From Escherichia coli (GTDB lineage Bacteria; Pseudomonadota; Gammaproteobacteria; Enterobacterales; Enterobacteriaceae), in the NCBI RefSeq assembly GCF_013122565.1, contig NZ_CP053258.1: DNA of 64,000 nucleotides. One strand, given 5' to 3'. Both the position numbers and the translations under genes were made by a program. Shown piece after piece: positions 9,329 to 56,235 of this stretch; positions within the stretch are counted from its first letter, which is position 1; each line of letters starts with the position of its first letter. Below the pieces are notes generated by a model, which was not told the DNA's origin, did not search any database, and saw only the letters and a list, made by a program, of their open reading frames with translations.

Positions 9329-9487
9329 ATTTTTTCAGGCCGGATATGGCGTTAACCGCCTGTCCGGCAAACCTGCCTGCAAGTCGAGCCTTGTCTGATT
9401 TATCAGCGAGGCTTTTTGCTTATTTATGCCAGCGCAACTTTGCTCTAAGATGTTTCGCTGGTTTATTAACTGATGATTGAAGAGCCC

Positions 9488-14521: not shown

Positions 14522-15709
<1,188 letters not shown>

Positions 15710-15732
15710 TCACTGATGATAAACGCCAAATA

Positions 15733-15832
15733 AGCCTGATGCGCTACGCTTATCAGGCCTACAAGAGAATTGCAATATGTTGAATTTGCACGATTTTGTA
15801 GGCCGGATAAGGCGTTCACGCCGCATCCGGCA
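15733..15832. repeat. REP/BIME palindromic elements in obgE-dacB intergenic region
   Basis: GCCTGATGCGCTACGCTTATCAGGCCTAC and GTAGGCCGGATAAGGCGTTCACGCCGCATCCGGCA match the E. coli REP consensus. Confidence 0.8.
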
Positions 15833-15862
15833 TAAACAAAGCGCACTTTGTCAATAATCTGA

Positions 15863-15892
15863 AGCCCCGGCCATGTGCCGGGGTTTCTTTTT
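15863..15892 (+). terminator. Intrinsic terminator after obgE operon
   Basis: Stem CCCCGGCC...GCCGGGG followed by TTTCTTTTT. Confidence 0.65.
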
Positions 15893-15894
15893 GA

Positions 15895-17328
15895 CTAATT
15901 ATTCTGATAAATATCTTTATACAAACGGCTTTCAAAACGCACTAACGGAATACGGCGATTACGCTGATCTGCTGGTTCTACTGCATAGCCAGAAAGATAT
16001 TGTACAAATGCCATTCGTTGCCCGCTCGCCGTGGTAATGAATCCCGCCAGGTTATATACCCCCTGCAGCGAACCTGTTTTCGCTGAGACTTTACCATCCA
16101 CGCCCGCCTGATGCAGACCTGCACGGTACTGTAAAGAGCCGTCATAGCCCGCCAGCGGCAGCATGGAGATAAAGTTAAGTTCATTGTCGTGTTGGGCAAT
16201 GTATTGCAGCACCTGCATCATGGTGGCGGGGGCAATCAGGTTATGCCGCGAAAGCCCTGAACCATCGGCAATAATGGTGTTTCCAATATCGACACCGGCT
16301 TGCTGGCGCAGGATCTGACGTACGGCGTCCGACCCGGCCCGCCATGTTCCAGGCACATTGAAGCGCGCATGGCCTATCATGCGGAAAACCGTATCGGCGA
16401 TCATGTTGTCTGACTTTTTCAGCATAATCTTAAGCAGATCGTGCAGCGGGGCCGATTGTTTACTGGCAACTACCGTTCCAGGTTCATTAACCTGAGTCTG
16501 GCGCAGCAGTGTTCCGCTCCAGGTGATACCCGCCTGTTTTAACTCATCTTTCAGAATTGCCCCGGCATAGCTGGCTCCATCCTGCACGGCAAAAGCCAAC
16601 GGGAGCGGCTCAGAACGTTGTGGCAGGCATCCCGTCAGCGTAAAGCGGTTCAGGTCGCCTGGTACGACATCCAGTTCGCAGTATTGCGCTTCGGCAGAAC
16701 CACGGGGGAGGGTGCGTACCTGGCTGAACATCGTAACGGGGTAATAAGATGCCACGCGTATAAAAGCCATATCACCAGTTTTTGGGGCACTGTAGAGCGA
16801 GACGGAGAAACAGTTGCGGTCAACTATGGCAGCGGCAGGCGGAGCGCTAAAGCACTGTGTCATATCATTCCATGGCCAGCCGGGGGCTTTATCGTGGCTG
16901 GCGAAAATGGAGGTATCTATAAACACATTGCCATCGATTTCGTTGACGCCAGATTTTTTCAAAGTCGCGACCATATTGCGAATATCCTGACGTTTTAACG
17001 TCGGATCGGCGCCAAATCGTGCTACTAAGTCACCCTTAAGTACGCCGTTTTCCACATTGCCTTTGGTTTCAAGTGTCGTGGTGAAACGAAAATCGGGGCC
17101 GAGTTGAATCAACGCCGCCAGCGCAGTAATCACTTTCTGCGTACTGGCGGGCAGCGCCATCTGCTGACTGTGGTAATCAATAGCGGGGGCCGACGCGCCA
17201 ACTTTTTGCACCATCAGGGCAAGGTTGGCACCTGCGGGGAGTTGAGTAATGTACTCATCAACATTCGCGGCCTGAACACTGAACGCTATACAGCTGGTCA
17301 ATCCGATGATAAATCTGGAAAATCGCAT
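15895..17328 (-). CDS. dacB: D-alanyl-D-alanine carboxypeptidase/endopeptidase PBP4
   Basis: 477 aa ORF with signal peptide; STQK active-site motif (ASTQKVITALAAL). Confidence 0.96.
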   Translation of the reverse strand: MRFSRFIIGLTSCIAFSVQAANVDEYITQLPAGANLALMVQKVGASAPAIDYHSQQMALPASTQKVITALAALIQLGPDFRFTTTLETKGNVENGVLKGDLVARFGADPTLKRQDIRNMVATLKKSGVNEIDGNVFIDTSIFASHDKAPGWPWNDMTQCFSAPPAAAIVDRNCFSVSLYSAPKTGDMAFIRVASYYPVTMFSQVRTLPRGSAEAQYCELDVVPGDLNRFTLTGCLPQRSEPLPLAFAVQDGASYAGAILKDELKQAGITWSGTLLRQTQVNEPGTVVASKQSAPLHDLLKIMLKKSDNMIADTVFRMIGHARFNVPGTWRAGSDAVRQILRQQAGVDIGNTIIADGSGLSRHNLIAPATMMQVLQYIAQHDNELNFISMLPLAGYDGSLQYRAGLHQAGVDGKVSAKTGSLQGVYNLAGFITTASGQRMAFVQYLSGYAVEPADQRNRRIPLVRFESRLYKDIYQNN

Positions 17329-17389
17329 AATCTCGCGCTAACAACCTGGAATCGAGCCGTCATACTACGGCGCAACGCCCTATAAAGTA

Positions 17390-17481
17390 AACGATGACCC
17401 TTCGGGAACTTCAGGGTAAAATGACTATCAAAATGTGAATTGTAGCTGACCTGGGACTTGTACCCGGGTCGGTATTTTTTT
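17390..17481 (+). ncRNA. graL: greA leader / GraL-type attenuated small transcript (approximate bounds)
   Basis: Promoter-like TAAAAT upstream and a stem (GACCTGGG...CCCGGGTC) followed by T7 within the greA 5' leader; coordinates approximate. Confidence 0.4.
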
Positions 17482-17575: not shown

Positions 17576-18052
<477 letters not shown>

Positions 18053-18098
18053 GAATTACCCAATACTCAAGATGTTGATGTATTGTAAAGAAAGGAAA

Positions 18099-18123
18099 AA
18101 GGCCGCTATGCGGCCTTTTATCA
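18099..18123. terminator. Bidirectional terminator between convergent greA and yhbY
   Basis: Stem GGCCGCTATGCGGCC flanked by A-run upstream and T-run downstream. Confidence 0.7.
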
Positions 18124-18207
18124 ACGAACAGAGCGTGGCATTTTGCTCTCCTGCCTGCGGAAAACCCCTCGTTTTACACAGCAAATGTGTGTAACTTTAG
18201 GATAATC

Positions 18208-18501
18208 TTAGCGTGGCAGCGAGATTTTACGTTCTTTAGTTGGGCGATAAAGCACCAGCGTTTTACCGATGACCTGTACATTACAGGCGCCGGTTTCGCG
18301 CACGATAGCTTCCACGATCAAGGTTTTAGTTTCGCGATCTTCGGTGGCGATTTTCACCTTGATGAGTTCATGGTGCTCTAACGCTTGTTCAATCTCGGCC
18401 AGCACCCCTTCGGTCAAACCATTACTGCCAAGCAGAACAACTGGCTTGAGCGGATGTGCCAGACCTTTCAGGTGCTGTTTTTGTTTAGTACTCAGATTCA
18501 T
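18208..18501 (-). CDS. yhbY: CRS1/YhbY-type RNA-binding protein
   Basis: 97 aa ORF MNLSTKQKQHLKGLAHPLKPVVLLGSNGLTEGVLAEIEQALEHHELIKVK. Confidence 0.95.
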   Translation of the reverse strand: MNLSTKQKQHLKGLAHPLKPVVLLGSNGLTEGVLAEIEQALEHHELIKVKIATEDRETKTLIVEAIVRETGACNVQVIGKTLVLYRPTKERKISLPR

Positions 18502-18626
18502 CGTATTTTTTGCTTACGTTGGGATTGAAAACGGGTCATTCTACCGCCATCTCCCATATATCACCAAATAGGCGCGTAAAAATTTACGCAATTGGTTACG
18601 ATGAGTTATCCCCATGGGAAAGTTAA

Positions 18627-19256
18627 ATGACAGGTAAGAAGCGTTCTGCCAGCTCCAGCCGCTGGCTTCAGGAACACTTTAGCGATAAATATGTTCAACA
18701 GGCACAGAAAAAGGGGTTACGTTCCCGTGCCTGGTTTAAACTTGATGAAATACAGCAAAGTGACAAACTCTTTAAACCGGGAATGACGGTTGTCGACCTT
18801 GGTGCTGCTCCGGGTGGTTGGTCACAATATGTGGTTACCCAAATTGGCGGCAAAGGCCGCATCATCGCTTGCGATCTTTTACCTATGGATCCTATCGTTG
18901 GTGTGGACTTTCTTCAGGGCGATTTTCGTGATGAACTGGTGATGAAAGCACTGCTGGAGCGCGTTGGCGACAGCAAAGTCCAGGTTGTCATGTCCGATAT
19001 GGCACCAAACATGAGCGGAACACCGGCGGTGGATATCCCCCGTGCCATGTATCTGGTGGAACTGGCGCTAGAAATGTGTCGTGATGTATTAGCGCCAGGT
19101 GGCAGTTTTGTAGTGAAGGTGTTCCAGGGCGAAGGTTTCGATGAGTATCTAAGGGAAATTCGCTCCCTGTTTACGAAGGTCAAAGTTCGTAAGCCGGACT
19201 CTTCTCGTGCACGTTCGCGGGAAGTGTATATTGTAGCGACCGGGCGTAAACCCTAA
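18627..19256 (+). CDS. rlmE: 23S rRNA U2552 2'-O-methyltransferase
   Basis: 209 aa ORF with SAM motif [14 protein letters not shown]. Confidence 0.96.
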
Positions 19257-19355
19257 CCGGGAGATTTCAGACGAAAGTTTGAAAGATGCTGGATATAGAG
19301 TATCCTGACGCTGTTTTTAACACAGTTGTAATAAGAGGTTAATCCCTTGAGTGAC

Positions 19356-21290
19356 ATGGCGAAAAACCTAATACTCTGGCTGGTCATTGCCGTTGTGCTG
19401 ATGTCAGTATTCCAGAGCTTTGGGCCCAGCGAGTCTAATGGCCGTAAGGTGGATTACTCTACCTTCCTACAAGAGGTCAATAACGACCAGGTTCGTGAAG
19501 CGCGTATCAACGGACGTGAAATCAACGTTACCAAGAAAGATAGTAACCGTTATACCACTTACATTCCGGTTCAGGATCCGAAATTACTGGATAACCTGTT
19601 GACCAAGAACGTCAAGGTTGTCGGTGAACCGCCTGAAGAACCAAGCCTGCTGGCTTCTATCTTCATCTCCTGGTTCCCGATGCTGTTGCTGATTGGTGTC
19701 TGGATCTTCTTCATGCGTCAAATGCAAGGCGGCGGTGGCAAAGGTGCCATGTCGTTTGGTAAGAGCAAAGCGCGCATGCTGACGGAAGATCAGATCAAAA
19801 CGACCTTTGCTGACGTTGCGGGCTGCGACGAAGCAAAAGAAGAAGTTGCTGAACTGGTTGAGTATCTGCGCGAGCCGAGCCGCTTCCAGAAACTCGGCGG
19901 TAAGATCCCGAAAGGCGTCCTGATGGTCGGTCCTCCGGGTACCGGTAAAACGCTGCTGGCGAAAGCGATTGCAGGCGAAGCGAAAGTTCCGTTCTTTACT
20001 ATCTCCGGTTCTGACTTCGTAGAAATGTTCGTCGGTGTGGGTGCATCCCGTGTTCGTGACATGTTCGAACAGGCGAAGAAAGCGGCACCGTGCATCATCT
20101 TTATCGATGAAATCGACGCCGTAGGCCGCCAGCGTGGCGCAGGTCTGGGCGGTGGTCACGATGAACGTGAACAGACTCTGAACCAGATGCTGGTTGAGAT
20201 GGATGGCTTCGAAGGTAACGAAGGTATCATCGTTATCGCCGCGACTAACCGTCCGGACGTTCTCGACCCGGCCCTGCTGCGTCCTGGCCGTTTCGACCGT
20301 CAGGTTGTGGTCGGCTTGCCAGATGTTCGCGGTCGTGAGCAGATCCTGAAAGTTCACATGCGTCGCGTACCATTGGCACCCGATATCGACGCGGCAATCA
20401 TTGCCCGTGGTACTCCTGGTTTCTCCGGTGCTGACCTGGCGAACCTGGTGAACGAAGCGGCACTGTTCGCTGCTCGTGGCAACAAACGCGTTGTGTCGAT
20501 GGTTGAGTTCGAGAAAGCGAAAGACAAAATCATGATGGGTGCGGAACGTCGCTCCATGGTGATGACGGAAGCGCAGAAAGAATCGACGGCTTACCACGAA
20601 GCGGGTCATGCGATTATCGGTCGCCTGGTGCCGGAACACGATCCGGTGCACAAAGTGACGATTATCCCACGCGGTCGTGCGCTGGGTGTGACTTTCTTCT
20701 TGCCTGAGGGCGACGCAATCAGCGCCAGCCGTCAGAAACTGGAAAGCCAGATTTCTACGCTGTACGGTGGTCGTCTGGCAGAAGAGATCATCTACGGGCC
20801 GGAACATGTTTCTACCGGTGCGTCCAACGATATTAAAGTTGCGACCAACCTGGCACGTAACATGGTGACTCAGTGGGGCTTCTCTGAGAAATTGGGTCCA
20901 CTGCTGTACGCGGAAGAAGAAGGTGAAGTGTTCCTCGGCCGTAGCGTAGCGAAAGCGAAACATATGTCCGATGAAACTGCACGTATCATCGACCAGGAAG
21001 TGAAAGCACTGATTGAGCGTAACTATAATCGTGCGCGTCAGCTTCTGACCGACAATATGGATATTCTGCATGCGATGAAAGATGCTCTCATGAAATATGA
21101 GACTATCGACGCACCGCAGATTGATGACCTGATGGCACGTCGCGATGTACGTCCGCCAGCGGGCTGGGAAGAACCAGGCGCTTCTAACAATTCTGGCGAC
21201 AATGGTAGTCCAAAGGCTCCTCGTCCGGTTGATGAACCGCGTACGCCGAACCCGGGTAACACCATGTCAGAGCAGTTAGGCGACAAGTAA
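19356..21290 (+). CDS. ftsH: ATP-dependent zinc metalloprotease FtsH
   Basis: ORF 19347..21290 (TTG) trimmed to ATG 19356 ([10 protein letters not shown]); Walker A GPPGTGKT, zinc motif HEAGH. Confidence 0.95.
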
Positions 21291-21322
21291 GTTCCCACAT
21301 CAGATGACTGTATTTGTACCAA

Positions 21323-21353
21323 AAACCCCGGGGCGTGCTCCGGGGTTTTTTCT
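21323..21353 (+). terminator. Terminator/attenuator between ftsH and folP
   Basis: Stem CCCCGGGGCGTGCTCCGGGG followed by TTTTTT. Confidence 0.65.
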
Positions 21354-21379
21354 TATCAATTCATACCAGGGATAACATC

Positions 21380-22228
21380 ATGAAACTCTTTGCCCAGGGT
21401 ACTTCACTGGACCTTAGCCATCCTCACGTAATGGGGATCCTCAACGTCACGCCTGATTCCTTTTCGGATGGTGGCACGCATAACTCGCTGATAGATGCGG
21501 TGAAACATGCGAATCTGATGATCAACGCTGGCGCGACGATCATTGACGTTGGTGGCGAGTCCACGCGCCCAGGGGCGGCGGAAGTTAGCGTTGAAGAAGA
21601 GTTGCAACGTGTTATTCCTGTGGTTGAGGCAATTGCTCAACGCTTCGAAGTCTGGATCTCGGTAGATACATCCAAACCAGAAGTCATCCGTGAGTCAGCG
21701 AAAGTTGGCGCTCACATTATTAACGATATCCGCTCCCTTTCCGAACCTGGCGCTCTGGAGGCGGCTGCAGAAACCGGTTTACCGGTTTGTCTGATGCATA
21801 TGCAGGGAAATCCAAAAACCATGCAGGAAGCTCCGAAGTATGACGATGTCTTTGCAGAAGTGAATCGCTACTTTATTGAGCAAATAGCACGTTGCGAGCA
21901 GGCGGGTATCGCAAAAGAGAAATTGTTGCTCGACCCCGGATTCGGTTTCGGTAAAAATCTCTCCCATAACTATTCATTACTGGCGCGCCTGGCTGAATTT
22001 CACCATTTCAACCTGCCGCTGTTGGTGGGTATGTCACGAAAATCGATGATTGGGCAGCTGCTGAACGTGGGGCCGTCCGAGCGCCTGAGCGGTAGTCTGG
22101 CCTGTGCGGTCATTGCCGCAATGCAAGGCGCGCACATCATTCGTGTTCATGACGTCAAAGAAACCGTAGAAGCGATGCGGGTGGTGGAAGCCACTCTGTC
22201 TGCAAAGGAAAACAAACGCTATGAGTAA
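21380..22228 (+). CDS. folP: Dihydropteroate synthase
   Basis: ORF 21314..22228 trimmed to ATG 21380 ([32 protein letters not shown]). Confidence 0.94.
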
Positions 22229-23558
22229 TCGTAAATATTTCGGTACCGATGGGATTCGTGGTCGTGTCGGGGATGCACCGATCACACCTGATTTTGTGCT
22301 TAAGCTGGGTTGGGCCGCGGGTAAAGTGCTGGCGCGCCACGGCTCCCGTAAGATTATTATTGGTAAAGACACGCGTATTTCTGGCTATATGCTGGAGTCA
22401 GCACTGGAAGCGGGTCTGGCGGCAGCGGGCCTTTCCGCACTCTTCACTGGCCCGATGCCAACACCGGCCGTGGCTTATCTGACGCGTACCTTCCGCGCAG
22501 AGGCCGGAATTGTGATATCTGCATCGCATAACCCGTTCTACGATAATGGCATTAAATTTTTCTCTATCGACGGCACCAAACTACCGGATGCGGTAGAAGA
22601 GGCCATCGAAGCGGAAATGGAAAAAGAGATCAGCTGCGTTGATTCGGCAGAACTGGGTAAAGCCAGCCGTATCGTTGATGCTGCGGGTCGCTATATCGAG
22701 TTTTGCAAAGCCACGTTCCCGAACGAACTTAGCCTCAGCGAACTGAAGATTGTGGTGGATTGCGCAAACGGTGCGACTTATCACATCGCGCCGAACGTGC
22801 TGCGTGAACTGGGGGCGAACGTTATCGCTATCGGTTGTGAGCCGAACGGTGTAAACATCAATGCCGAAGTGGGGGCTACCGACGTTCGCGCGCTCCAGGC
22901 TCGTGTGCTGGCTGAAAAAGCGGATCTCGGCATTGCCTTCGACGGCGACGGCGATCGCGTGATTATGGTTGACCATGAAGGCAATAAAGTCGATGGCGAT
23001 CAGATCATGTATATCATCGCGCGTGAAGGTCTTCGTCAGGGCCAGCTGCGTGGTGGCGCTGTGGGTACATTGATGAGCAACATGGGGCTTGAACTGGCGC
23101 TGAAACAGTTAGGAATTCCATTTGCGCGCGCGAAAGTGGGTGACCGCTACGTACTGGAAAAAATGCAGGAGAAAGGCTGGCGTATCGGTGCAGAGAATTC
23201 CGGTCATGTGATCCTGCTGGATAAAACCACTACCGGTGACGGCATCGTTGCTGGCTTGCAGGTGCTGGCGGCGATGGCACGTAACCATATGAGCCTGCAC
23301 GACCTTTGCAGCGGCATGAAAATGTTCCCGCAGATTCTGGTTAACGTGCGTTACACCGCAGGTAGCGGCGATCCGCTTGAGCATGAGTCAGTTAAAGCCG
23401 TGACCGCAGAGGTTGAAGCTGCGCTGGGCAACCGTGGACGCGTGTTGCTGCGTAAATCCGGCACCGAACCGTTAATTCGCGTGATGGTGGAAGGCGAAGA
23501 CGAAGCGCAGGTGACTGAATTTGCACACCGCATCGCCGATGCAGTAAAAGCCGTTTAA
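22221..23558 (+). CDS. glmM: Phosphoglucosamine mutase
   Basis: 445 aa ORF with phospho-Ser loop SASHNP; start overlaps folP stop by 8 nt. Confidence 0.97.
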
Positions 23559-23579
23559 AGCGTCAGATAACTGGCTAAA

Positions 23580-23606
23580 AAGGCGGCGATTGTCGCCTTT
23601 TTTCTC
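23580..23606 (+). terminator. Hairpin plus T-run after glmM
   Basis: AGGCGGCGATTGTCGCCTTTTTTC. Confidence 0.55.
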
Positions 23607-23785
23607 GGCGAACACATCGGTTTTGCTGTTTTTTTCCGCAGTTGATACAATGCGATAAAATTGCCCTTGCGAAGGTCATTCGCTTTGGTTAGTATTCACA
23701 CCCGCTTCAGTGGGAAAGATTAAAAACTCCCGCTTTATTGGTTGAAGCATTGGTACGCGGCAACTCCGCAAGGAACAGGTTGATT

Positions 23786-24118
23786 ATGTACGAAGCTCTT
23801 TTGGTAGTTTTCCTTATTGTGGCAATTGGCCTTGTTGGTCTGATCATGCTGCAGCAAGGTAAAGGCGCTGATATGGGAGCCTCCTTCGGAGCAGGCGCTT
23901 CCGCTACGCTGTTTGGTTCAAGTGGTTCTGGTAACTTCATGACCCGCATGACGGCGTTGCTGGCAACGTTATTCTTCATCATCAGTCTGGTGCTGGGTAA
24001 CATCAATAGCAACAAAACCAATAAAGGTAGCGAATGGGAAAACCTGAGTGCGCCGGCGAAAACCGAACAAACTCAGCCAGCTGCTCCGGCTAAGCCGACC
24101 AGCGATATCCCGAACTAA
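23786..24118 (+). CDS. secG: Preprotein translocase subunit SecG
   Basis: ORF 23738..24118 trimmed to ATG 23786 (MYEALLVVFLIVAIGLVGLIMLQQGKG). Confidence 0.95.
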   Translation: MYEALLVVFLIVAIGLVGLIMLQQGKGADMGASFGAGASATLFGSSGSGNFMTRMTALLATLFFIISLVLGNINSNKTNKGSEWENLSAPAKTEQTQPAAPAKPTSDIPN

Positions 24119-24132
24119 AAAGTAGTATCCGT

Positions 24133-24219
24133 GCCGAGGTGGTGGAATTGGTAGACACGCTACCTTGAGGTGGTAGTGCCCAATAGGGCTTACGGGTTCA
24201 AGTCCCGTCCTCGGTACCA
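24133..24219 (+). tRNA. leuU: tRNA-Leu (anticodon GAG)
   Basis: 87 nt GCCGAGGTGGTGGAATTGGTAGACACGCTACCTTGAGGTGGTAG...GGTACCA; long variable arm, CCA end encoded; immediately 3' of secG. Confidence 0.95.
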
Positions 24220-24230
24220 AATTCCAGAAA

Positions 24231-24256
24231 AGAGACGCTGAAAAGCGTCTTTTTTC
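24231..24256 (+). terminator. Intrinsic terminator after secG-leuU
   Basis: AGAGACGCTGAAAAGCGTCTTTTTT. Confidence 0.8.
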
Positions 24257-24677
24257 GTTTTGGTCCTGGTCTGAGGAATGGTTGTCAGGTATCTGTATCT
24301 CGTCCAGTTGCTTTACTCGTAGCTGGTACCTTGAAACGATGGTGCCGGTACGCCTTAGTTATAAATTTTTCCCTTCTGCTGACATAATTGGCACTTTATT
24401 GTGTCAACTCCAGTTCCGGTACGAATACGGATATGTTTACTTCTCGATAAACCATCCTGCTCCTGTCAGTATAACGACTGATGGCTACGTTCTGCGTAAT
24501 GTTTAGAGACGCATTGATAATGTTATTTAATTACTGAGAACGCAATGGCCGCATCATTTAAAAAGAAAAAACTAACAGTGTTTCGTTCTGATATGGATCA
24601 GAGTTGAAAAATATGTCTGATATAAAATTGAACATTGTTGATAATTGTTTATATTGGTTGTGAACTTGGATTTCTGG

Positions 24678-26303
24678 ATGACAGTATTCAACAAATTTGC
24701 TAGAAGTTTTAAATCTCATTGGTTGTTGTATCTTTGTGTTATTGTTTTTGGTATTACGAACTTAGTCGCCTCTTCCGGAGCGCATATGGTTCAGCGCTTG
24801 CTGTTCTTCGTCCTGACCATCCTGGTTGTTAAACGTATATCATCCCTTCCGCTTCGCCTGCTTGTTGCCGCACCATTTGTGTTACTGACTGCGGCAGACA
24901 TGAGTATTAGCCTCTATTCATGGTGTACCTTTGGTACAACTTTCAATGATGGATTTGCGATTAGTGTGCTCCAGAGTGATCCGGATGAAGTTGTCAAAAT
25001 GCTGGGGATGTATATCCCTTATCTATGTGCTTTTGCTTTTTTATCCCTTCTTTTTTTGGCAGTAATAATAAAATATGATGTTTCCTTGCCGACAAAAAAA
25101 GTGACAGGAATATTATTGCTGATTGTCATTTCGGGCAGTTTATTTTCTGCTTATCAATTTGCTTATAAAGATGCAAAAAATAAAAATGCGTTCAGTCCAT
25201 ATATACTAGCGTCGCGATTTGCTACCTATACGCCGTTTTTCAATCTCAATTATTTTGCTTTAGCAGCGAAAGAGCATCAAAGATTACTCTCAATTGCAAA
25301 CACGGTGCCGTATTTTCAATTATCAGTCAGGGATACAGGTATTGATACCTACGTGTTGATTGTGGGGGAGTCTGTACGTGTCGACAATATGTCTTTGTAT
25401 GGATATACACGCTCTACGACACCGCAAGTCGAAGCACAAAGAAAACAGATCAAACTGTTTAATCAAGCAATAAGCGGCGCACCTTACACTGCGCTGTCGG
25501 TTCCCCTTTCTTTAACTGCTGATTCTGTTTTGAGTCATGACATTCATAATTACCCCGACAACATTATTAATATGGCTAATCAGGCAGGATTTCAGACTTT
25601 CTGGCTAAGTTCGCAATCCGCTTTTCGGCAGAATGGTACAGCAGTTACCAGTATCGCCATGCGCGCCATGGAAACAGTTTATGTCAGAGGATTTGATGAA
25701 TTGTTGTTGCCGCATTTATCGCAAGCATTACAGCAAAATACGCAGCAAAAGAAACTGATTGTTCTTCATTTAAATGGAAGCCATGAACCGGCTTGTAGCG
25801 CCTATCCGCAGTCCAGCGCCGTGTTTCAACCGCAGGACGATCAGGATGCCTGCTATGACAACTCCATTCATTACACAGATAGTTTGCTAGGTCAGGTTTT
25901 TGAATTATTAAAAGAGCGCCGCGCCTCGGTCATGTATTTTGCCGACCACGGCCTGGAACGTGACCCTACGAAGAAGAACGTCTATTTTCATGGAGGCAGG
26001 GAGGCTAGCCAGCAGGCATATCATGTCCCGATGTTTATCTGGTATAGCCCCGTTCTTGGGGATGGCGTGGATCGCACAACGGAAAACAACATCTTTTCGA
26101 CAGCTTACAATAATTACCTTATTAATGCGTGGATGGGGGTAACAAAGCCGGAACAGCCGCAAACGCTTGAGGAAGTGATTGCACACTATAAAGGAGACTC
26201 ACGGGTTGTGGATGCAAACCATGATGTTTTCGATTATGTGATGCTCAGAAAGGAGTTTACAGAGGATAAGCAAGGTAACCCCACCCCTGAAGGGCAGGGT
26301 TGA
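24678..26303 (+). CDS. yhbX: Putative phosphoethanolamine transferase (sulfatase-domain, EptA/OpgE-like)
   Basis: ORF 24645..26303 trimmed to MTVFNKFARSFKSHW; N-terminal TM helices plus C-terminal sulfatase domain; AT-rich codon usage. Confidence 0.88.
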   Translation: MTVFNKFARSFKSHWLLYLCVIVFGITNLVASSGAHMVQRLLFFVLTILVVKRISSLPLRLLVAAPFVLLTAADMSISLYSWCTFGTTFNDGFAISVLQSDPDEVVKMLGMYIPYLCAFAFLSLLFLAVIIKYDVSLPTKKVTGILLLIVISGSLFSAYQFAYKDAKNKNAFSPYILASRFATYTPFFNLNYFALAAKEHQRLLSIANTVPYFQLSVRDTGIDTYVLIVGESVRVDNMSLYGYTRSTTPQVEAQRKQIKLFNQAISGAPYTALSVPLSLTADSVLSHDIHNYPDNIINMANQAGFQTFWLSSQSAFRQNGTAVTSIAMRAMETVYVRGFDELLLPHLSQALQQNTQQKKLIVLHLNGSHEPACSAYPQSSAVFQPQDDQDACYDNSIHYTDSLLGQVFELLKERRASVMYFADHGLERDPTKKNVYFHGGREASQQAYHVPMFIWYSPVLGDGVDRTTENNIFSTAYNNYLINAWMGVTKPEQPQTLEEVIAHYKGDSRVVDANHDVFDYVMLRKEFTEDKQGNPTPEGQG

Positions 26304-28001: not shown

Positions 28002-28078
<77 letters not shown>

Positions 28079-28200
28079 CTTTCCCTTAGAGTCCTTTTTC
28101 AAATATACTGTGAAGACTTCGGCCTTCGTAGTGGGATTTGAAAAAATCCTTCTGGAAAGTGCTCCAGACCGCAGTTGCGGTTATAGGGTTCAGTTATATA

Positions 28201-28226
28201 AAGCCCCGATTTATCGGGGTTTTTTG
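28201..28226 (+). terminator. First terminator/attenuator between metY and rimP
   Basis: AAGCCCCGATTTATCGGGGTTTTTTG. Confidence 0.75.
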
Positions 28227-28247
28227 TTATCTGACTACAGAATAACT

Positions 28248-28268
28248 GGGCTTTAGGCCCTTTTTTTA
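28248..28268 (+). terminator. Second terminator/attenuator between metY and rimP
   Basis: GGGCTTTAGGCCCTTTTTTT. Confidence 0.65.
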
Positions 28269-30276: not shown

Positions 30277-32949
30277 ATGACAGATGTAACGATTAAAACG
30301 CTGGCCGCAGAGCGACAGACCTCCGTGGAACGCCTGGTACAGCAATTTGCTGATGCAGGTATCCGGAAGTCTGCTGACGACTCTGTGTCTGCACAAGAGA
30401 AACAGACTTTGATTGACCACCTGAATCAGAAAAATTCAGGCCCGGACAAATTGACGCTGCAACGTAAAACACGCAGCACCCTTAACATTCCAGGTACCGG
30501 TGGAAAAAGCAAATCGGTACAAATCGAAGTCCGCAAGAAACGCACCTTTGTGAAACGCGATCCGCAAGAGGCTGAACGCCTTGCAGCGGAAGAGCAAGCG
30601 CAGCGTGAAGCGGAAGAGCAAGCCCGTCGTGAGGCAGAAGAATCGGCTAAACGCGAGGCGCAACAAAAAGCTGAACGTGAGGCCGCAGAACAAGCTAAGC
30701 GTGAAGCTGCTGAACAAGCGAAACGTGAAGCTGCGGAAAAAGACAAAGTGAGCAATCAACAAGACGATATGACTAAAAACGCCCAGGCTGAAAAAGCCCG
30801 CCGTGAGCAGGAAGCTGCAGAGCTCAAGCGTAAAGCCGAAGAAGAAGCGCGTCGTAAACTCGAAGAAGAAGCACGTCGCGTTGCTGAAGAAGCACGTCGT
30901 ATGGCGGAAGAAAACAAATGGACTGATAACGCGGAACCGACTGAAGATTCCAGCGATTATCACGTCACTACTTCTCAACATGCTCGCCAGGCAGAAGACG
31001 AAAGCGATCGTGAAGTCGAAGGCGGCCGTGGCCGTGGTCGTAACGCGAAAGCAGCGCGTCCGAAGAAAGGCAACAAACACGCTGAATCAAAAGCTGATCG
31101 TGAAGAAGCACGCGCAGCAGTACGTGGCGGTAAAGGCGGAAAACGTAAAGGTTCTTCGCTGCAGCAAGGCTTCCAGAAGCCAGCTCAGGCCGTTAACCGT
31201 GACGTTGTGATCGGCGAAACTATCACCGTTGGCGAACTGGCGAACAAGATGGCGGTTAAAGGCTCTCAGGTCATCAAAGCGATGATGAAACTGGGCGCAA
31301 TGGCAACCATCAACCAGGTTATCGATCAGGAAACCGCACAGCTGGTTGCTGAAGAGATGGGCCACAAAGTTATCCTGCGTCGTGAAAACGAGCTGGAAGA
31401 GGCGGTAATGAGCGACCGTGACACGGGTGCTGCGGCTGAACCGCGCGCGCCGGTTGTGACCATCATGGGTCACGTTGACCACGGTAAAACCTCTCTGCTG
31501 GACTACATTCGTTCAACGAAAGTGGCCTCTGGCGAAGCGGGCGGCATTACCCAGCACATTGGTGCATACCACGTTGAAACTGAAAACGGCATGATCACCT
31601 TCCTGGACACCCCGGGGCACGCCGCGTTTACTTCAATGCGTGCACGTGGTGCGCAGGCAACGGACATCGTAGTCCTGGTTGTTGCTGCCGACGACGGCGT
31701 AATGCCGCAGACCATCGAAGCAATCCAGCACGCGAAAGCGGCGCAGGTACCGGTGGTGGTTGCAGTGAACAAGATCGATAAACCAGAAGCCGATCCGGAT
31801 CGTGTTAAGAACGAACTCTCCCAGTATGGCATCCTGCCGGAAGAGTGGGGTGGTGAAAGCCAGTTCGTACACGTATCTGCGAAAGCGGGTACCGGCATCG
31901 ATGAACTGCTGGACGCTATCCTGCTGCAGGCGGAAGTTCTGGAGCTGAAAGCGGTACGTAAAGGTATGGCGAGCGGTGCGGTTATCGAATCCTTCCTCGA
32001 TAAAGGTCGTGGTCCGGTTGCTACCGTTCTGGTACGTGAAGGTACTCTGCACAAGGGCGATATCGTTCTGTGTGGCTTCGAATACGGTCGTGTTCGTGCG
32101 ATGCGTAACGAACTGGGTCAGGAAGTGCTGGAAGCGGGTCCGTCCATTCCGGTGGAAATCCTCGGCCTGTCCGGCGTTCCGGCTGCGGGTGATGAAGTTA
32201 CCGTTGTACGTGACGAGAAGAAAGCGCGTGAAGTTGCACTCTATCGTCAGGGTAAATTCCGCGAAGTTAAACTGGCGCGTCAGCAGAAATCTAAACTCGA
32301 GAACATGTTTGCCAACATGACCGAAGGCGAAGTTCACGAAGTGAATATCGTCCTGAAGGCAGACGTACAGGGTTCTGTGGAAGCGATCTCCGACTCCTTG
32401 CTGAAACTGTCTACTGACGAAGTTAAAGTGAAGATCATCGGTTCTGGCGTAGGTGGTATCACCGAAACCGACGCCACCCTGGCTGCGGCGTCCAACGCCA
32501 TCCTGGTTGGCTTCAACGTACGTGCTGATGCCTCTGCACGTAAAGTGATTGAAGCGGAAAGCCTGGATCTGCGTTACTACTCCGTCATCTATAACCTGAT
32601 CGACGAAGTGAAAGCGGCGATGAGCGGTATGCTGTCTCCGGAACTGAAACAGCAGATTATCGGTCTGGCGGAAGTTCGTGACGTGTTCAAATCGCCGAAA
32701 TTTGGTGCCATCGCAGGCTGTATGGTTACCGAAGGTGTGGTTAAACGTCACAACCCGATCCGCGTTCTGCGTGACAACGTGGTTATCTATGAAGGCGAGC
32801 TGGAGTCCCTGCGCCGCTTCAAAGATGACGTTAACGAAGTCCGTAACGGTATGGAATGTGGTATCGGCGTTAAGAACTACAACGACGTCCGCACTGGCGA
32901 TGTGATCGAAGTATTCGAAATCATCGAGATCCAACGTACCATCGCTTAA
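30277..32949 (+). CDS. infB: Translation initiation factor IF-2
   Basis: 890 aa ORF; charged repeat N-terminal region, G-domain [12 protein letters not shown] / DTPGH / NKID. Confidence 0.97.
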
Positions 32950-32966
32950 GGTTTTTAGGGTTCCAT

Positions 32967-33036
32967 GCGGGATAAGGCGTTTACGCCGCATCCGGCATGG
33001 ATTGCATGATGCGACGCTGGCGCGTCTTATCAGGCC
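32967..33036. repeat. REP palindromes in infB-rbfA intergenic region
   Basis: GCGGGATAAGGCGTTTACGCCGCATCCGGCA and GATGCGACGCTGGCGCGTCTTATCAGGCC. Confidence 0.75.
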
Positions 33037-33074
33037 AACGTGAACAGCCCTTCCACCTGAAATTAATTTTTAAA

Positions 33075-33097
33075 AAGGGGCTAACAGCCCCTTTTTT
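33075..33097 (+). terminator. Hairpin plus T-run upstream of rbfA (attenuator)
   Basis: AAGGGGCTAACAGCCCCTTTTTT. Confidence 0.65.
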
Positions 33098-33113: not shown

Positions 33114-33515
33114 ATGGCGAAAGAATTTGGTCGCCCGCAGCGCGTAGCGCAGGAAATGCAAAAAGAGATCGCTCTCATCCTGCAGCGTGAAATTAAAGAT
33201 CCTCGCCTGGGCATGATGACCACCGTTTCCGGTGTCGAAATGTCTCGCGACCTGGCGTATGCCAAAGTATATGTGACGTTCCTCAACGACAAAGATGAAG
33301 ACGCGGTTAAAGCGGGCATCAAAGCGTTGCAGGAAGCTTCTGGTTTCATCCGCAGCCTGCTGGGTAAAGCGATGCGCCTGCGTATCGTGCCGGAACTGAC
33401 CTTCTTCTACGACAACTCTCTGGTTGAAGGGATGCGTATGTCAAACCTGGTGACCAGCGTGGTCAAACATGACGAAGAACGTCGTGTTAACCCGGACGAC
33501 AGCAAGGAGGACTAA
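33114..33515 (+). CDS. rbfA: Ribosome-binding factor A
   Basis: ORF 32997..33515 trimmed to ATG 33114 ([26 protein letters not shown]). Confidence 0.94.
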
Positions 33516-34511: not shown

Positions 34512-34877
<366 letters not shown>

Positions 34878-34894
34878 TTCTTGCGAGTTTCAGA

Positions 34895-34921
34895 AAAGGG
34901 GGCCTGAGTGGCCCCTTTTTT
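34895..34921. terminator. rpsO terminator, palindromic with U-runs on both strands
   Basis: AAAAGGGGGCCTGAGTGGCCCCTTTTTT. Confidence 0.8.
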
Positions 34922-35068
34922 CAAGCTGACGGCAGCAATTAACTGGAAACTAATGTATTGTTGCTATGAATGATCTTCCGTTGCAGAGGTTCGCGCGGCT
35001 AATGAGAGGCTTTACCCACATAGAGCTGGGTTAGGGTTGTCATTAGTCGCGAGGATGCGCAGAAGATC
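34895..35068 (-). ncRNA. sraG: SraG-type small RNA antisense to the pnp leader (bounds approximate, by position)
   Basis: Known position of SraG in the rpsO-pnp intergenic region on the opposite strand; the palindromic rpsO terminator supplies a minus-strand 3' end; no independent sequence proof of 5' end. Confidence 0.3.
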
Positions 35069-40474: not shown

Positions 40475-41719
40475 ATGGCAACACTAACCACCACCCAAAC
40501 GTCACCGTCGCTGCTTGGCGGCGTGGTGATTATCGGCGGCACCATTATTGGCGCAGGGATGTTTTCTCTGCCAGTGGTCATGTCCGGTGCGTGGTTCTTC
40601 TGGTCAATGGCGGCGCTGATCTTCACCTGGTTCTGTATGCTGCATTCCGGCTTGATGATTCTGGAAGCTAACCTGAATTACCGAATCGGTTCGAGTTTTG
40701 ACACCATCACCAAAGATTTGCTGGGCAAAGGCTGGAACGTGGTCAACGGTATTTCCATTGCCTTTGTGCTCTATATCCTGACCTATGCCTATATTTCTGC
40801 CAGCGGTTCGATTCTGCATCATACCTTCGCAGAGATGTCATTGAACGTCCCGGCACGGGCAGCGGGTTTTGGTTTTGCACTGTTGGTGGCGTTTGTGGTG
40901 TGGTTGAGCACTAAAGCCGTCAGCCGCATGACGGCGATTGTGCTGGGGGCGAAAGTCATTACCTTCTTCCTCACCTTCGGTAGCCTGCTGGGGCATGTGC
41001 AGCCAGCGACATTGTTCAACGTCGCCGAAAGCAATGCATCTTATGCGCCGTATTTGCTGATGACGCTGCCGTTCTGCCTGGCGTCGTTTGGTTATCACGG
41101 TAACGTGCCGAGCCTGATGAAGTATTACGGCAAAGATCCGAAAACCATCGTGAAATGCCTGGTGTACGGTACGCTGATGGCACTGGCGCTGTATACCATC
41201 TGGTTGCTGGCGACGATGGGCAACATCCCTCGTCCGGAGTTTATCGGCATCGCCGAGAAGGGCGGTAACATTGATGTGCTGGTACAGGCGTTAAGCGGCG
41301 TGCTGAACAGCCGTAGTCTGGACCTTCTGCTGGTCGTGTTCTCAAATTTTGCGGTAGCGAGTTCGTTCCTCGGCGTAACGCTGGGCCTGTTTGACTATCT
41401 GGCAGACCTGTTTGGTTTTGACGACTCAGCCCTGGGCCGCTTTAAAACGGCATTGCTGACCTTTGCCCCGCCTGTCGTGGGTGGCCTGCTGTTCCCGAAT
41501 GGATTCCTGTACGCCATTGGTTATGCTGGCTTAGCGGCTACCATCTGGGCGGCAATCGTTCCGGCACTGCTGGCCCGCGCATCGCGTAAACGCTTTGGCA
41601 GCCCGAAATTCCGCGTCTGGGGCGGCAAGCCGATGATCGCGCTGATTCTGGTCTTCGGTGTTGGCAACGCACTGGTGCATATCTTATCGAGCTTTAATTT
41701 GCTGCCGGTGTATCAGTAA
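40475..41719 (+). CDS. mtr: Tryptophan-specific permease
   Basis: 414 aa polytopic [36 protein letters not shown]. Confidence 0.96.
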
Positions 41720-41724
41720 TCAGC

Positions 41725-41827
41725 GGTGCCTTATCCGACATTTCTGCTGCCTACACAATGCCTGATGCGCTTCGCTTATCAGGTCTACGTAGGACAGCGT
41801 TGCCAGCTCGGATAAGGCTTCCCGCGT
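41725..41827. repeat. REP/BIME cluster between mtr and yhbW
   Basis: GCCTGATGCGCTTCGCTTATCAGGTCTAC flanked by CCTTATCCGACA / CGGATAAGGC palindromic units. Confidence 0.7.
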
Positions 41828-41836
41828 TAAGACACA

Positions 41837-42844
41837 CTATCCCAACAACTCTTCCTTAACATCCATCGCCAGCTCAAACGAATGCAGGCGCGCCTGGTGG
41901 TCGAAAATCTGCCCGTTAACCATAATTTCATCGGCGTCGGTTTCGCGCAGGATCGACTGCAAACCATGACGCACTTTCGCTTTATCGCCCACCAGCGACA
42001 TGCTCAGCGCCTGCTGCACGCCATACTGCTCAGACGGTGACCAGAACTGATCCATATTTTGAATCGGCGGCGGCAGTTGCCCGGTTTCGCCACGGCGTAA
42101 CTTCACAAAGGCTTGCTGCATTGAGGTAAACAGAAATTCAGCGTCGCGGTTGCTGTCGGCGGCGATAATATTGATGCACACCATCGCGTATGGTTTCTCC
42201 AGCCGAGCCGACGGTTTGAAGTTGCTGCGATAAAGATGCAGCGCCTGGAACAACATATCCGGCGCGAAGTGTGAGGCAAACGCAAACGGCAGACCAAGCT
42301 GCCCCGCCAGTTGCGCGCTGTAAAGGCTGGAGCCTAACAACCACACGGGGATTTTCTCGCCATAGCCCGGCACTGGGCGCACATGCGGATTGGGATCGCG
42401 GGCGTCAAACCAGTCCACCAGCTCCGCGACATCGCGGGGGAAATTATCAATATCGCCGCTCATATGACGACGCAGCGCCATCATGGTTCGCTGATCGCTA
42501 CCCGGTGCACGACCCAGCCCCAAATCGATTCGCCCCGGATAGAGCGTATTGAGTGTGCCGAACTGTTCGGCAATCACCAACGGTGAGTGGTTAGGCAACA
42601 TCACGCCGCCGGACCCAAGATGCAGCGTGGTGGTATTCGCCGCCAGATAGCCAATTAACACAGACGTTGCAGCACTGGCAATGCCGGTCATATTGTGGTG
42701 TTCCGCCAGCCAGTAGCGATGATAGCCGCGCTTTTCAGCCAGACGGGCGAGATCGAGAGAGTGGGAGAATGCTTCTCGTGCTGAAGAACCTTCGGGGATG
42801 GGGGCCAGATCGAGTAGCGAAAACGCAATGGTTTTATCAGTCAT
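41837..42844 (-). CDS. yhbW: Luciferase-like (LLM-class) flavin-dependent monooxygenase
   Basis: 335 aa [29 protein letters not shown]. Confidence 0.93.
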
Positions 42845-48153: not shown

Positions 48154-49194
48154 ATGACTGGTCAGTCTTCATCTCAGGCGGCAACGCCCATTCAGTGGTG
48201 GAAACCCGCGCTTTTCTTTCTCGTTGTCATTGCCGGTCTCTGGTATGTGAAATGGCAACCTTACTACGGCAAAGCGTTTACTGCTGCCGAAACCCACAGT
48301 ATCGGTAAATCTATCCTTGCGCAGGCGGATGCTAATCCATGGCAGGCGGCGTTGGATTACGCGATGATCTATTTCCTCGCGGTATGGAAAGCGGCGGTGC
48401 TGGGGGTGATCCTCGGTTCGTTGATTCAGGTGCTGATCCCGCGTGACTGGTTGTTGCGTACGCTTGGGCAATCGCGCTTTCGCGGCACGCTGCTGGGAAC
48501 GCTGTTTTCGCTGCCGGGCATGATGTGTACCTGCTGTGCGGCTCCGGTTGCGGCGGGAATGCGTCGCCAACAGGTGTCGATGGGCGGTGCGCTGGCATTC
48601 TGGATGGGCAATCCGTTGTTAAACCCGGCAACGCTGGTATTTATGGGCTTTGTCCTCGGCTGGGGTTTTGCCGCAATTCGTCTGGTGGCGGGGCTGGTGA
48701 TGGTGTTGCTGATTGCGACCCTGGTGCAAAAATGGGTGCGTGAAACAGCGCAAACGCAGGCACCGGTCGAAATTGACATACCGGAAGCACAGGGCGGGTT
48801 TTTTAGCCGCTGGGGCAGGGCGTTATGGACGCTTTTCTGGAGTACGATCCCGGTTTACATCCTTGCAGTACTGGTGTTGGGTGCCGCTCGCGTCTGGTTA
48901 TTCCCCCATGCCGATGGTGCTGTCGATAACAGCCTGATGTGGGTGGTGGCGATGGCGGTGGCAGGATGCTTGTTTGTCATTCCCACGGCAGCAGAAATTC
49001 CGATTGTACAAACGATGATGCTGGCAGGTATGGGAACTGCTCCGGCGCTGGCATTGTTGATGACGCTCCCGGCGGTGAGTTTGCCGTCACTGATTATGCT
49101 GCGCAAAGCGTTCCCGGCGAAAGCCTTATGGCTGACGGGGGCGATGGTGGCAGTGTCTGGTGTGATTGTCGGCGGGCTGGCGCTGTTGGCCTAA
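48154..49194 (+). CDS. yraQ: Inner membrane permease
   Basis: 346 aa polytopic ORF. Confidence 0.92.
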   Translation: MTGQSSSQAATPIQWWKPALFFLVVIAGLWYVKWQPYYGKAFTAAETHSIGKSILAQADANPWQAALDYAMIYFLAVWKAAVLGVILGSLIQVLIPRDWLLRTLGQSRFRGTLLGTLFSLPGMMCTCCAAPVAAGMRRQQVSMGGALAFWMGNPLLNPATLVFMGFVLGWGFAAIRLVAGLVMVLLIATLVQKWVRETAQTQAPVEIDIPEAQGGFFSRWGRALWTLFWSTIPVYILAVLVLGAARVWLFPHADGAVDNSLMWVVAMAVAGCLFVIPTAAEIPIVQTMMLAGMGTAPALALLMTLPAVSLPSLIMLRKAFPAKALWLTGAMVAVSGVIVGGLALLA

Positions 49195-49228
49195 CATGTT
49201 GGATGCTCTTGAATACAGCACTGGACGG

Positions 49229-49260
49229 TCCCCTCTCCCCTTTGGGGAGAGGGTGAGGGG
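49229..49260. terminator. Strong palindromic hairpin between convergent yraQ and dolP
   Basis: TCCCCTCTCCCCTTTGGGGAGAGGGTGAGGGG. Confidence 0.45.
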
Positions 49261-49309
49261 AACAGGTCGGCTAAGATGTGAATATTTACTTCAACGACCG
49301 ATCAATGGC

Positions 49310-49885
49310 TTATTTAATAAACGTAAACGCCGTAGTTACCCGCTTCACGCCGCTCACCCGGCTGGCAATATCTGCCGCCGCTTTCGCTTCACGTTCAGTC
49401 ACCAGCCCCATCAGGAACACTTCACCGTTTTCGGTGGTCACTTTCACGTTGGACGATTTCACCAGGTCGCTGGTTAAGAGCTGCGAACGCACTTTGGTGG
49501 TGATCCACGTATCGTTAGACGCTTCGCCCAGACCAATCGGCTGGCCCTGACGAATCTCGTTATACACTTCGTTGGCACCGTCTACGCCCATAGCAATCTG
49601 TTTGGCGCGAGCCGAAAGTTCAGCGTTTGGTGACTGCCCAACCAGCAGCACTTTGCCCTGATAGGCTGTTACATTAATGCGCGCTTCTTTCTTAATTTGT
49701 TCGTCTTTCGACAATGCGCTGTTCACGCGCACTTCCAGGGTACCATCGTCCACCTGGGTGCCGACACTGCGTGGGTCAGTTGCGGCTTTGGTACCCACAG
49801 CAGCGGTACCCACTACGGCAGCGGCAACACAACCTTGCAACAGCAGCGCGGAAATAAGGACTGCGATTGGCGATAATGCCTTCAT
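49310..49885 (-). CDS. dolP: Dual-BON-domain outer membrane lipoprotein DolP
   Basis: 191 aa ORF MKALSPIAVLISALLLQGC (lipobox). Confidence 0.95.
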   Translation of the reverse strand: MKALSPIAVLISALLLQGCVAAAVVGTAAVGTKAATDPRSVGTQVDDGTLEVRVNSALSKDEQIKKEARINVTAYQGKVLLVGQSPNAELSARAKQIAMGVDGANEVYNEIRQGQPIGLGEASNDTWITTKVRSQLLTSDLVKSSNVKVTTENGEVFLMGLVTEREAKAAADIASRVSGVKRVTTAFTFIK

Positions 49886-54880: not shown

Positions 54881-54890
54881 TCTATCCTCG

Positions 54891-56218: not shown

Positions 56219-56235
56219 CCGGGCTAAGAGGGATG

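Follow-up and report, generated by a model that had tools for sequence, protein, structure and literature searches.

REP/BIME-type palindromes and a BoxC-type repeat in the 3′-proximal spacers of a 64-kb Escherichia coli chromosome segment

Short palindromes lie between obgE and dacB in an Escherichia coli chromosome (contig NZ_CP053258.1), and similar ones recur between other genes of the surrounding 64,000 nucleotides, the whole stretch of DNA analysed here (the window). Their presence raises the questions of what kind of element they are, how each is built and what they might do where they lie. REP/BIME and BoxC repeats have been in catalogues of the E. coli genome since the 1980s–1990s. 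The original prediction, made from the letters of the window, read the palindromes at obgE/dacB, infB/rbfA, mtr/yhbW and agaS/agaA as REPs and noted a further hairpin at yraQ/dolP. We find that all five sites are real, with boundaries correct to within a few bases, and that the kind of element was rightly named; it is already known and ordinary. The window is the reverse complement of K-12 MG1655 3,346,291–3,281,067, with 98.8% identity to K-12 over window positions 1–49188 by alignment, and every gene pair named in the prediction agrees with the K-12 annotation and with the list of open reading frames. The flagged palindromes are very probably ordinary members of the REP/BIME family, together with one BoxC, in 3′-proximal spacers of a normal segment of the E. 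coli chromosome. The basis for this reading is the identity of the units to the y, z1 and z2 classes, a hairpin geometry with an AA/GC internal mismatch, BIME-1 and BIME-2-like pairings, repetition across the genome and orthology to K-12.

Three sequence classes (y, z1 and z2), a GTAG motif and an imperfect palindrome are the defining features of REPs; BIME-1 joins z1 and y through a long, IHF-binding linker, and BIME-2 joins z2 and y through a short one (PMC3333891). We searched the window by blastn-short, using as queries the three E. coli REP sequences given by Durrant et al. 2024 (PMC11208160) and the K-12 BoxC type A of Holder et al. 2015 (PMC4666352, Table 1), and scanned it a second time by ungapped consensus scoring against dinucleotide-shuffled windows. 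The published consensus sequences and the Rfam naRNA4 and ES036 models served as independent models, and K-12 was compared by pairwise alignment. Scanned formally in this way, the palindromes match REP models by blastn-short, by the ungapped scan and by Rfam naRNA4. The blastn-short E-values across the five sites run from 1e-13 to 3e-4. Six units are strong (E <= 4e-7: 15734–15762, 15798–15832, 32970–32997, 33007–33036, 41760–41789 and 61535–61567), and beyond them there is one half unit (61518–61533, E 3e-4) and one weak unit (9337–9353, E 0.02). The ungapped scan recovered the same units, seven distinct ones (10 overlapping hits) against 0.07 per dinucleotide shuffle. All units are intergenic, the coding sequences of the window giving no significant REP match by blastn-short. 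Given 584 REPs in the K-12 genome (PMC3333891), about eight would be expected in 64 kb, and the count here, roughly six full units with a half unit and a weak one besides, agrees with the original view that E. coli should have such repeats. At obgE/dacB, infB/rbfA and mtr/yhbW, alignment shows the same copy number and orientation as in K-12.

The units also carry the finer marks of the family. GTAG, or CTAC on the opposite strand, is present in four of the six strong units (15759–15762 and 41785–41788 as CTAC, 15798–15801 and 61536–61539) and absent from both infB/rbfA units (CCAT and CAAC) and from the weak unit (TCAG at 9335–9338). Every unit folds with an internal stem mismatch (in y a two-nucleotide AA/GC loop, in z2 its counterpart, in z1 one unpaired position), and at the three main sites the folds stand at z = -6.0, -4.3 and -6.0 relative to shuffles. 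An 801-bp obgE/dacB query finds a median of at least 39 places per genome, and the infB/rbfA query a median of nine. The features and their positions are collected in Table 1.

Table 1. Repeats, hairpins and flanking genes in the 64-kb window (window coordinates)
Feature	Coordinates	Strand	Details
Degenerate y-like REP hairpin, mlaB/ibaG (co-directional)	9335–9372	+	without GTAG
obgE	14537–15709	+	
z1 REP of BIME-1	15733–15762	- (GTAG-first)	+ strand reads as iREP, ...GCCTGATGCGCTACGCTTATCAGGCCTAC, CTAC 15759–15762
BIME-1 long linker (L motif)	15763–15797	.	35 nt, IHF-like site inside
y REP of BIME-1	15798–15832	+	GTAG then GCCGGATAAGGCG-TTCA-CGCCGCATCCGGC, AA/GC internal mismatch
Intrinsic terminator of obgE, not REP	15861–15893	+	11-bp GC-rich stem (15861–15887), then TTTTT
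dacB	15895–17328	-	
infB	30277–32949	+	
y REP between infB and rbfA	32963–32997	+	CCAT in place of GTAG
z2 REP between infB and rbfA	33003–33039	- (iREP on + strand)	5-nt linker to y unit; CAAC in place of CTAC
Small terminator/attenuator-like hairpin, not REP	33077–33097	+	GGGGC-TAACA-GCCCC, then T6; A5 upstream
rbfA	33114–33515	+	
mtr	40475–41719	+	
Composite nested palindrome filling mtr/yhbW spacer	41723–41826	.	~104 nt
z1 REP at palindrome centre	41759–41788	- (iREP on +)	CTAC 41785–41788
yhbW	41837–42844	-	
yraQ	48154–49194	+	
BoxC/TM_ECO-type repeat	49230–49260	+	CCCCTCTCCCC-TTT-GGGGAGAGGG-TGAGGGG
dolP	49310–49885	-	
agaS	60143–61297	-	
Left half of y iREP (TGCCGGATGCGGCGTA) adjoining z2	61518–61533	+	16/16, E 3e-4
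z2 REP in agaA-agaS spacer	61536–61572	+	GTAG 61536–61539
Intrinsic terminator of agaA	61587–61630	-	hairpin 61630–61605, then U-rich run
agaA	61648–62781	-	

On its sequence, the element between obgE and dacB (15733–15832) is a canonical BIME-1, with a z1 iREP, a 35-nt L linker and an inversely oriented y REP, present in single copy. The z1 unit matches the published z1 at 29 of 29 positions (15734–15762, E 4.5e-12; 29/30 in the ungapped scan), forms a hairpin of -13.4 kcal/mol and is identical in K-12. The y unit matches the published y at 34 of 35 positions (E 3.6e-13) and our own consensus at all 35, and folds at -20.9 kcal/mol; the first hairpin of naRNA4 gives a sub-threshold 38.3 bits at 15801–15837. 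The linker contains a predicted IHF-like site (ATTCAACATATTG, 15773–15785 on the minus strand) with one mismatch to the consensus WATCAANNNNTTR. Its Rfam match is to ES036, the consensus of which consists of the L linker plus GTAGGCCU; the match (15755–15797, minus strand) scores 31.5 bits, below the gathering score of 37.6, and a 43-nt linker query finds a median of three and a maximum of eight places per E. coli genome. The element thus resembles known BIME-1s in its z1 iREP, conserved linker with an IHF-like site, inverse y REP, single copy and position at a gene 3′ end; the differences are nothing of note, being the one IHF-consensus mismatch and the ES036 score below gathering. BIME-1 elements are also known as RIB/RIP or IHF-binding BIMEs. 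A separate intrinsic terminator, found by our terminator scan, follows (-21.7 kcal/mol, z -5.4), its upper end separated by 7 nt from the stop codon of dacB. The BIME-1 begins 24 nt past the obgE stop codon, upstream of this terminator, and therefore lies within the obgE 3′ UTR. K-12 shares this layout, with one single-nucleotide polymorphism (SNP) in the BIME-1, in the y loop, and one just upstream.

The infB/rbfA spacer carries a y REP and a z2 iREP, with core matches of 28/28 (32970–32997, E 2e-11) and 30/30 (33007–33036, E 1.5e-12; 35/37 in the ungapped scan), respectively. Class composition and the short linker are those of BIME-2. Tandem BIME-2 copies are absent here, a single y+z2 pair being found in the window and in K-12, so the element is best named a single BIME-2-like pair. 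K-12 has the same organization with five SNPs. The Rfam naRNA4 model (RF02564) matches at 32966–33036 with 70.5 bits, exceeding the gathering score (59.5); as this model is itself a y+z2 REP unit, the match supports REP membership and not small-RNA function. The pair shares with the naRNA4/REP325 unit its y REP, 5-nt linker and z2 iREP (32963–33039) as well as the above-gathering match; it differs in being single, in carrying CCAT and CAAC, in a y stem lengthened by 7 bp (UCCAUGC/GCAUGGA; fold -25.9 kcal/mol) and in its position inside an operon. CCAT and CAAC occur in the window and in K-12, and strain MINF_7C retains GTAG and CTAC. Because TnpA-REP needs GTAG for binding and cleavage, and the stem mismatch also for binding (PMC3333891), the common allele, lacking GTAG and CTAC, is probably immobile. 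Just ahead of the rbfA start codon (33114), direct reading and folding showed a small A5-hairpin-T6 element. Our simple terminator scan had missed both this hairpin and that of agaA, so we read both from the sequence and folded them; here the miss is probably explained by pairs between the A-run and T-run lengthening the stem.

In the agaA/agaS spacer the z2 unit (61535–61567, 30/33, E 4e-7; 32/37 in the ungapped scan) is fused to half a y unit that ends 2 nt from its GTAG and can pair with its right arm to give one long chimeric hairpin of -26.8 kcal/mol; naRNA4 reaches a sub-threshold 28 bits at 61539–61609. Where the window has the half unit, K-12 and strain Ecol_743 have a complete y iREP and an 11-nt linker. 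The site is like other atypical or partial BIMEs in having a z2 unit and half a y unit, and differs in the fused half-y chimeric hairpin, which the K-12 allele lacks. The agaA terminator, probably missed by the simple scan owing to its internal stem mismatch, lies upstream of the REP as agaA is transcribed. The REP thus does not mark the primary 3′ end and is transcribed only by read-through.

At mtr/yhbW, a lone z1 unit (41760–41789, 28/30, E 7e-8) sits at the centre of a palindrome that starts 3 nt past the mtr stop codon and stops 10 nt short of that of yhbW. The outer arms are GCCTTATCCGA (41728–41738) and TCGGATAAGGC (41808–41818), CCTAC and GTAGG are found within the middle arms, and the whole folds at -50.6 kcal/mol (z -6.0), as good a fold appearing in none of 200 shuffles. 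The outer arms look like half-arms of a y REP, yet the structure is single-copy (median one place per genome). Among atypical or partial BIMEs and solitary REPs the site is familiar in its lone z1 unit, and it differs in that this unit is nested in a locus-specific palindrome of about 104 nt with arms that are merely y-half-like. The only difference from K-12 is one SNP, CTAC to CTAT. In E. coli strain A2, IS621 is inserted at ...CAGGTCT^AC of this z1 unit, and each junction has CT. REPs are the reported targets of IS621 (PMC11208160), and an insertion here is what one would expect if the unit is a genuine REP.

The original prediction listed the yraQ/dolP site as a distinct poly-C/G hairpin. 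The hairpin is real, and it is not anonymous: it is a BoxC (TM_ECO) repeat with a 6-nt deletion. It matches K-12 type A at 27 of 29 positions (49231–49259, E 3.5e-7), and its hairpin part (CCCCTCTCCCC-TTT-GGGGAGAGGG, 49230–49253) folds at about -22 kcal/mol on both strands. Six nucleotides are absent (AGGGTT as aligned, equivalently TTAGGG against K-12 type A); with them go the second loop and some of the third-strand segment, so that T and GAGGGG are left. The second loop (TTA/CCG) and the roughly 10-nt G-rich third strand (GGGTGAGGGG) with which a BoxC could form its intrastrand triplex are accordingly incomplete in the window copy, relative to strain KE55 and to K-12 type A. Given this loss, the hairpin is plausible and the triplex is not, judging from the sequence. 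Strain KE55 has a full 37-nt BoxC at the same locus, and strain ETEC1738 the same deletion as the window. As in the BoxC/TM_ECO repeats described by Holder et al. 2015 (PMC4666352), there is a pyrimidine arm CCCTCTCCCC, a TTT loop, the purine arm, a terminal GAGGGG and a location in an intergenic spacer rearranged between strains; in contrast to them, 6 nt are absent, and the 23 K-12 copies (PMC4666352) do not include this locus. K-12 has no BoxC at yraQ/dolP, and has a BIME of a y iREP and a z2 REP instead. The two spacers are not alignable, with breakpoints at the last two yraQ codons and just before the dolP stop codon. TM_ECO loci have been linked to local rearrangement (PMC4666352), and the exchange of BoxC and BIME at yraQ/dolP fits this association.

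The sites had been described as concentrated at convergent gene ends, a description that the gene map does not bear out. Of the gene junctions in the window, about 10 are convergent, 10 divergent and 47 co-directional. Among the four REP sites, obgE/dacB and mtr/yhbW are convergent, as is yraQ/dolP with its BoxC; the other two are co-directional (infB to rbfA, both on the plus strand; agaA to agaS, both on the minus strand). REPs occur at 2 of 10 convergent junctions and 2 of 57 others, an enrichment that is not significant (Fisher p=0.10) and reaches p=0.02 only when the BoxC, at one convergent junction, is counted. None of the 10 divergent spacers in the window holds a REP or BoxC. A defensible wording is that the repeats lie downstream of genes and never in divergent promoter spacers, which is their known distribution.

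The literature suggests how such elements could arise and act. They may have originated as non-autonomous palindromes recognized by TnpA-REP/RAYT through GTAG and the stem mismatch, and may have been kept where promoters are undisturbed, that is, downstream of genes. In RNA, the co-transcribed hairpins (-13 to -51 kcal/mol) would impede 3′-to-5′ exonucleases, with the BIME-1 placed in the obgE 3′ UTR, the y+z2 pair in the RNA between the infB and rbfA cistrons, and the composite palindrome at the 3′ ends of both mtr and yhbW; a role as mRNA stabilizers, as originally suggested, would follow from published work of this kind. In DNA, the putative site in the BIME-1 linker could bind IHF, as BIME-1 linkers do (PMC3333891), and y+z2 pairs are the class reported to bind gyrase. 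The repeats could also act as hotspots at which DNA rearranges and REP-targeting IS elements insert, the latter directly illustrated by strain A2, and such hotspots may be the cause of the allelic variation at agaA/agaS, mtr/yhbW and yraQ/dolP. Several observations stand against this explanation: obgE and agaA have intrinsic terminators of their own, and the agaA/agaS REP lies past its terminator; the infB/rbfA pair lacks GTAG and CTAC; the outer arms at mtr/yhbW are single-copy; the BoxC lacks its triplex segment; and the REP enrichment at convergent junctions does not by itself reach significance.

Proximity to stop codons suggests a different emphasis for some sites. A hairpin no more than 15 nt from a stop codon may stall the terminating ribosome and so, by way of mRNA cleavage and trans-translation, reduce how much of the upstream protein is made, and at infB and mtr (as well as yhbW and mlaB) the effect could be mainly translational. 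The stems begin 12 nt (infB), 3 nt (mtr), 10 nt (yhbW, on the minus strand) and 10 nt (mlaB) from the stop codons, within the 15-nt rule as quoted in PMC12306157, and the infB/rbfA stem is longer in the allele of the window and K-12 than in the canonical allele of MINF_7C. However, the rule does not extend to the obgE BIME-1 (24 nt), the BoxC (35 nt) or the agaA/agaS REP (75 nt), and constitutive down-regulation of infB, the product of which is essential and abundant, seems improbable. We consider a mainly translational role at these genes an outside but serious candidate, with perhaps one chance in several.

If the palindromes were instead transcription terminators of the flanking genes, above all at mtr/yhbW and yraQ/dolP, one hairpin acting in both directions would end the two converging transcripts. 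Our terminator scan found no other terminator-like site at 41500–42000 or at 49000–49500, the mtr/yhbW hairpin is very stable and occupies the whole spacer, and the BoxC hairpin is equally stable on the two strands. Yet neither hairpin has a U-run after it, whichever strand is read; at obgE, agaA and infB/rbfA the canonical terminator is an element separate from the REP; and the interchange of BIME and BoxC at yraQ/dolP across strains argues against a specific terminator sequence. Termination as the identity of these palindromes is therefore unlikely.

Still less probable, and in our view very doubtful, is that the elements are genes for free RNAs and not cis elements, with infB/rbfA encoding a small RNA of the naRNA4 (nucleoid-associated RNA) family and the BIME-1 linker an ES036-type small RNA. 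The Rfam scores at 32966–33036 and 15755–15797 could be read this way, and according to PMC4550694 transcription reaches about 80% of the REPs annotated in E. coli. We rejected the naRNA4 match as evidence for a small-RNA gene: the model represents one y+z2 unit of REP325, and any BIME-2-like pair matches it. The ES036 score, in turn, is below gathering, a scan showed no promoter-like site in the obgE/dacB or infB/rbfA spacer, and the infB/rbfA element lies within a co-transcribed operon. It is hardly credible that these are GC-rich inverted repeats arisen by chance, or plain terminators wrongly labelled as REPs: the folds at agaA/agaS (z -1.8) and of the BoxC (z -1.3 to -1.6) are not exceptional relative to shuffles, but the blastn-short matches to published consensus sequences and the shuffle control refute the chance reading, and the elements have tens of copies per genome.

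With the palindromes read as REP/BIME elements and a BoxC, their value as strain-variable markers, also part of the original prediction, divides by site. Among 5426 complete E. coli genomes, the full-length obgE/dacB locus is present in 5406 and the infB/rbfA locus in 5421; being nearly fixed, these two are poor presence/absence markers. The claim stands for the other three, which have clear alternative alleles and could serve in typing. At yraQ/dolP the BoxC allele is found in 428 and the BIME allele in 4650 of the 5426 genomes. The agaA/agaS locus has two alleles in a bimodal distribution, 2698 genomes being 95–99% identical to the allele of the window and 2440 being 80–90% identical. The mtr/yhbW locus is full-length in 4836 of 5426 genomes and interrupted by IS621 in one strain. 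Beyond correct annotation the elements have little importance, the copies being orthologous to those of K-12; the practical value lies in the corrected anatomy, namely the unit class at each site, the truly convergent spacers and the real positions of the terminators.

A more speculative reading, to which we give a low probability, is that 3′-end spacers hold interchangeable 'repeat cassettes', in which the host would select for any stable hairpin (domestication) and not for a particular repeat family. It draws on three features: the mutual replacement at yraQ/dolP of the unrelated BIME (86% of genomes) and BoxC (8%); the natural 6-nt deletion in the BoxC of the window, which should remove the proposed triplex and leave the hairpin; and the common infB/rbfA allele, which has lost GTAG and CTAC and gained a 7-bp stem extension 12 nt from the stop codon. 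If true, it would provide natural pairs of alleles for studying BoxC-triplex instability and REP translational control.

A sixth, weaker site, missing from the original list, lies between mlaB and ibaG. It is a degenerate y-like unit of the kind seen among atypical or partial BIMEs and solitary REPs, matching at 26 of 35 positions in the ungapped scan and 16 of 17 by blastn-short (E 0.02). The hairpin folds at -21.3 kcal/mol (z -4.4), begins 10 nt past the mlaB stop codon and is identical in K-12.

The yraQ/dolP spacer is swapped in its entirety between strains, window 49189-49310 corresponding to K-12 3296984-3297104, and two alleles were counted among 5426 complete E. coli genomes: the BoxC cassette found in the window (428 genomes) and the y+z2 BIME found in K-12 (4650). 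The swap also alters the last two codons of yraQ, which ends ...L-L-A-stop in the window and ...L-F-stop in K-12.

The infB/rbfA REP pair (window 32963-33039) differs from K-12 at 5 of about 70 positions, against a window-wide divergence of roughly 1.2%. The common allele of this pair has lost both GTAG and CTAC, and a minority allele, belonging to a class of about 90% identity (exemplified by locus L008 of strain MINF_7C), keeps both. A y-like REP hairpin in the mlaB/ibaG spacer, a site that the original prediction did not list, lacks GTAG; its stem begins 10 nt downstream of the stop codon of mlaB, its fold has an energy of -21.3 kcal/mol (z -4.4) and the K-12 copy is identical.

At mtr/yhbW, E. 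coli strain A2 (NZ_CP028772.1) carries IS621, a member of the IS110 family, within the CTAC of the z1 REP. The junctions lie at positions 527-528 and ~185 of two A2 locus sequences (L006 and L009, respectively), corresponding to window 41786/41787, and both contain a CT core. This insertion is a natural example of a bridge-RNA insertion sequence targeting a REP.

Two larger segments distinguish the window from K-12. Window 53805-56279 is missing in K-12, which has the yraHIJK fimbrial operon at that place, and its arrangement occurs in only 63 of the 5426 genomes; for its two divergent open reading frames (ORFs), the annotations in other genomes are LysR-family regulator and MBL-fold metallo-hydrolase. 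The K-12 alignment ends at window 62206, and the K-12 aga region has a deletion, with agaW and agaA annotated as pseudogenes. In the window, agaA is full length (377 aa) and is followed by two ORFs absent from K-12, the three together spanning 61648-63964; the aga cluster is therefore intact, without the K-12 deletion.

None of the 5426 genomes is a near-identical match to the window. The highest identities were 98.1% (15400-16200), 99.4% (18000-26000), 97.3% (49140-49360) and 99.6% (53700-56400), each from a different strain. The source lineage looks mosaic and sparsely represented among these genomes.

The Rfam features, counted when above the gathering score, are all of the expected kind.

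Coordinates of features in the window
Feature	Position	Strand	Evidence or sequence
y-like REP hairpin, mlaB/ibaG	9335-9372		TCAGGCCGGATATGGCGTTAACCGCCTGTCCGGCAAAC
greA leader	17359-17480		Rfam > gathering score
tRNA-Leu (leuU)	24133-24216		Rfam > gathering score
tRNA-fMet (metY)	28002-28075		Rfam > gathering score
rimP leader	28167-28267		Rfam > gathering score
S15 leader	34550-34664		Rfam > gathering score
SraG sRNA	34894-35065	-	Rfam > gathering score
Divergent ORF, K-12-absent segment	53924-54880	-	
Divergent ORF, K-12-absent segment	54929-55906	+	
ORF after agaA, none in K-12	62778-63212		
ORF after agaA, none in K-12	63230-63964
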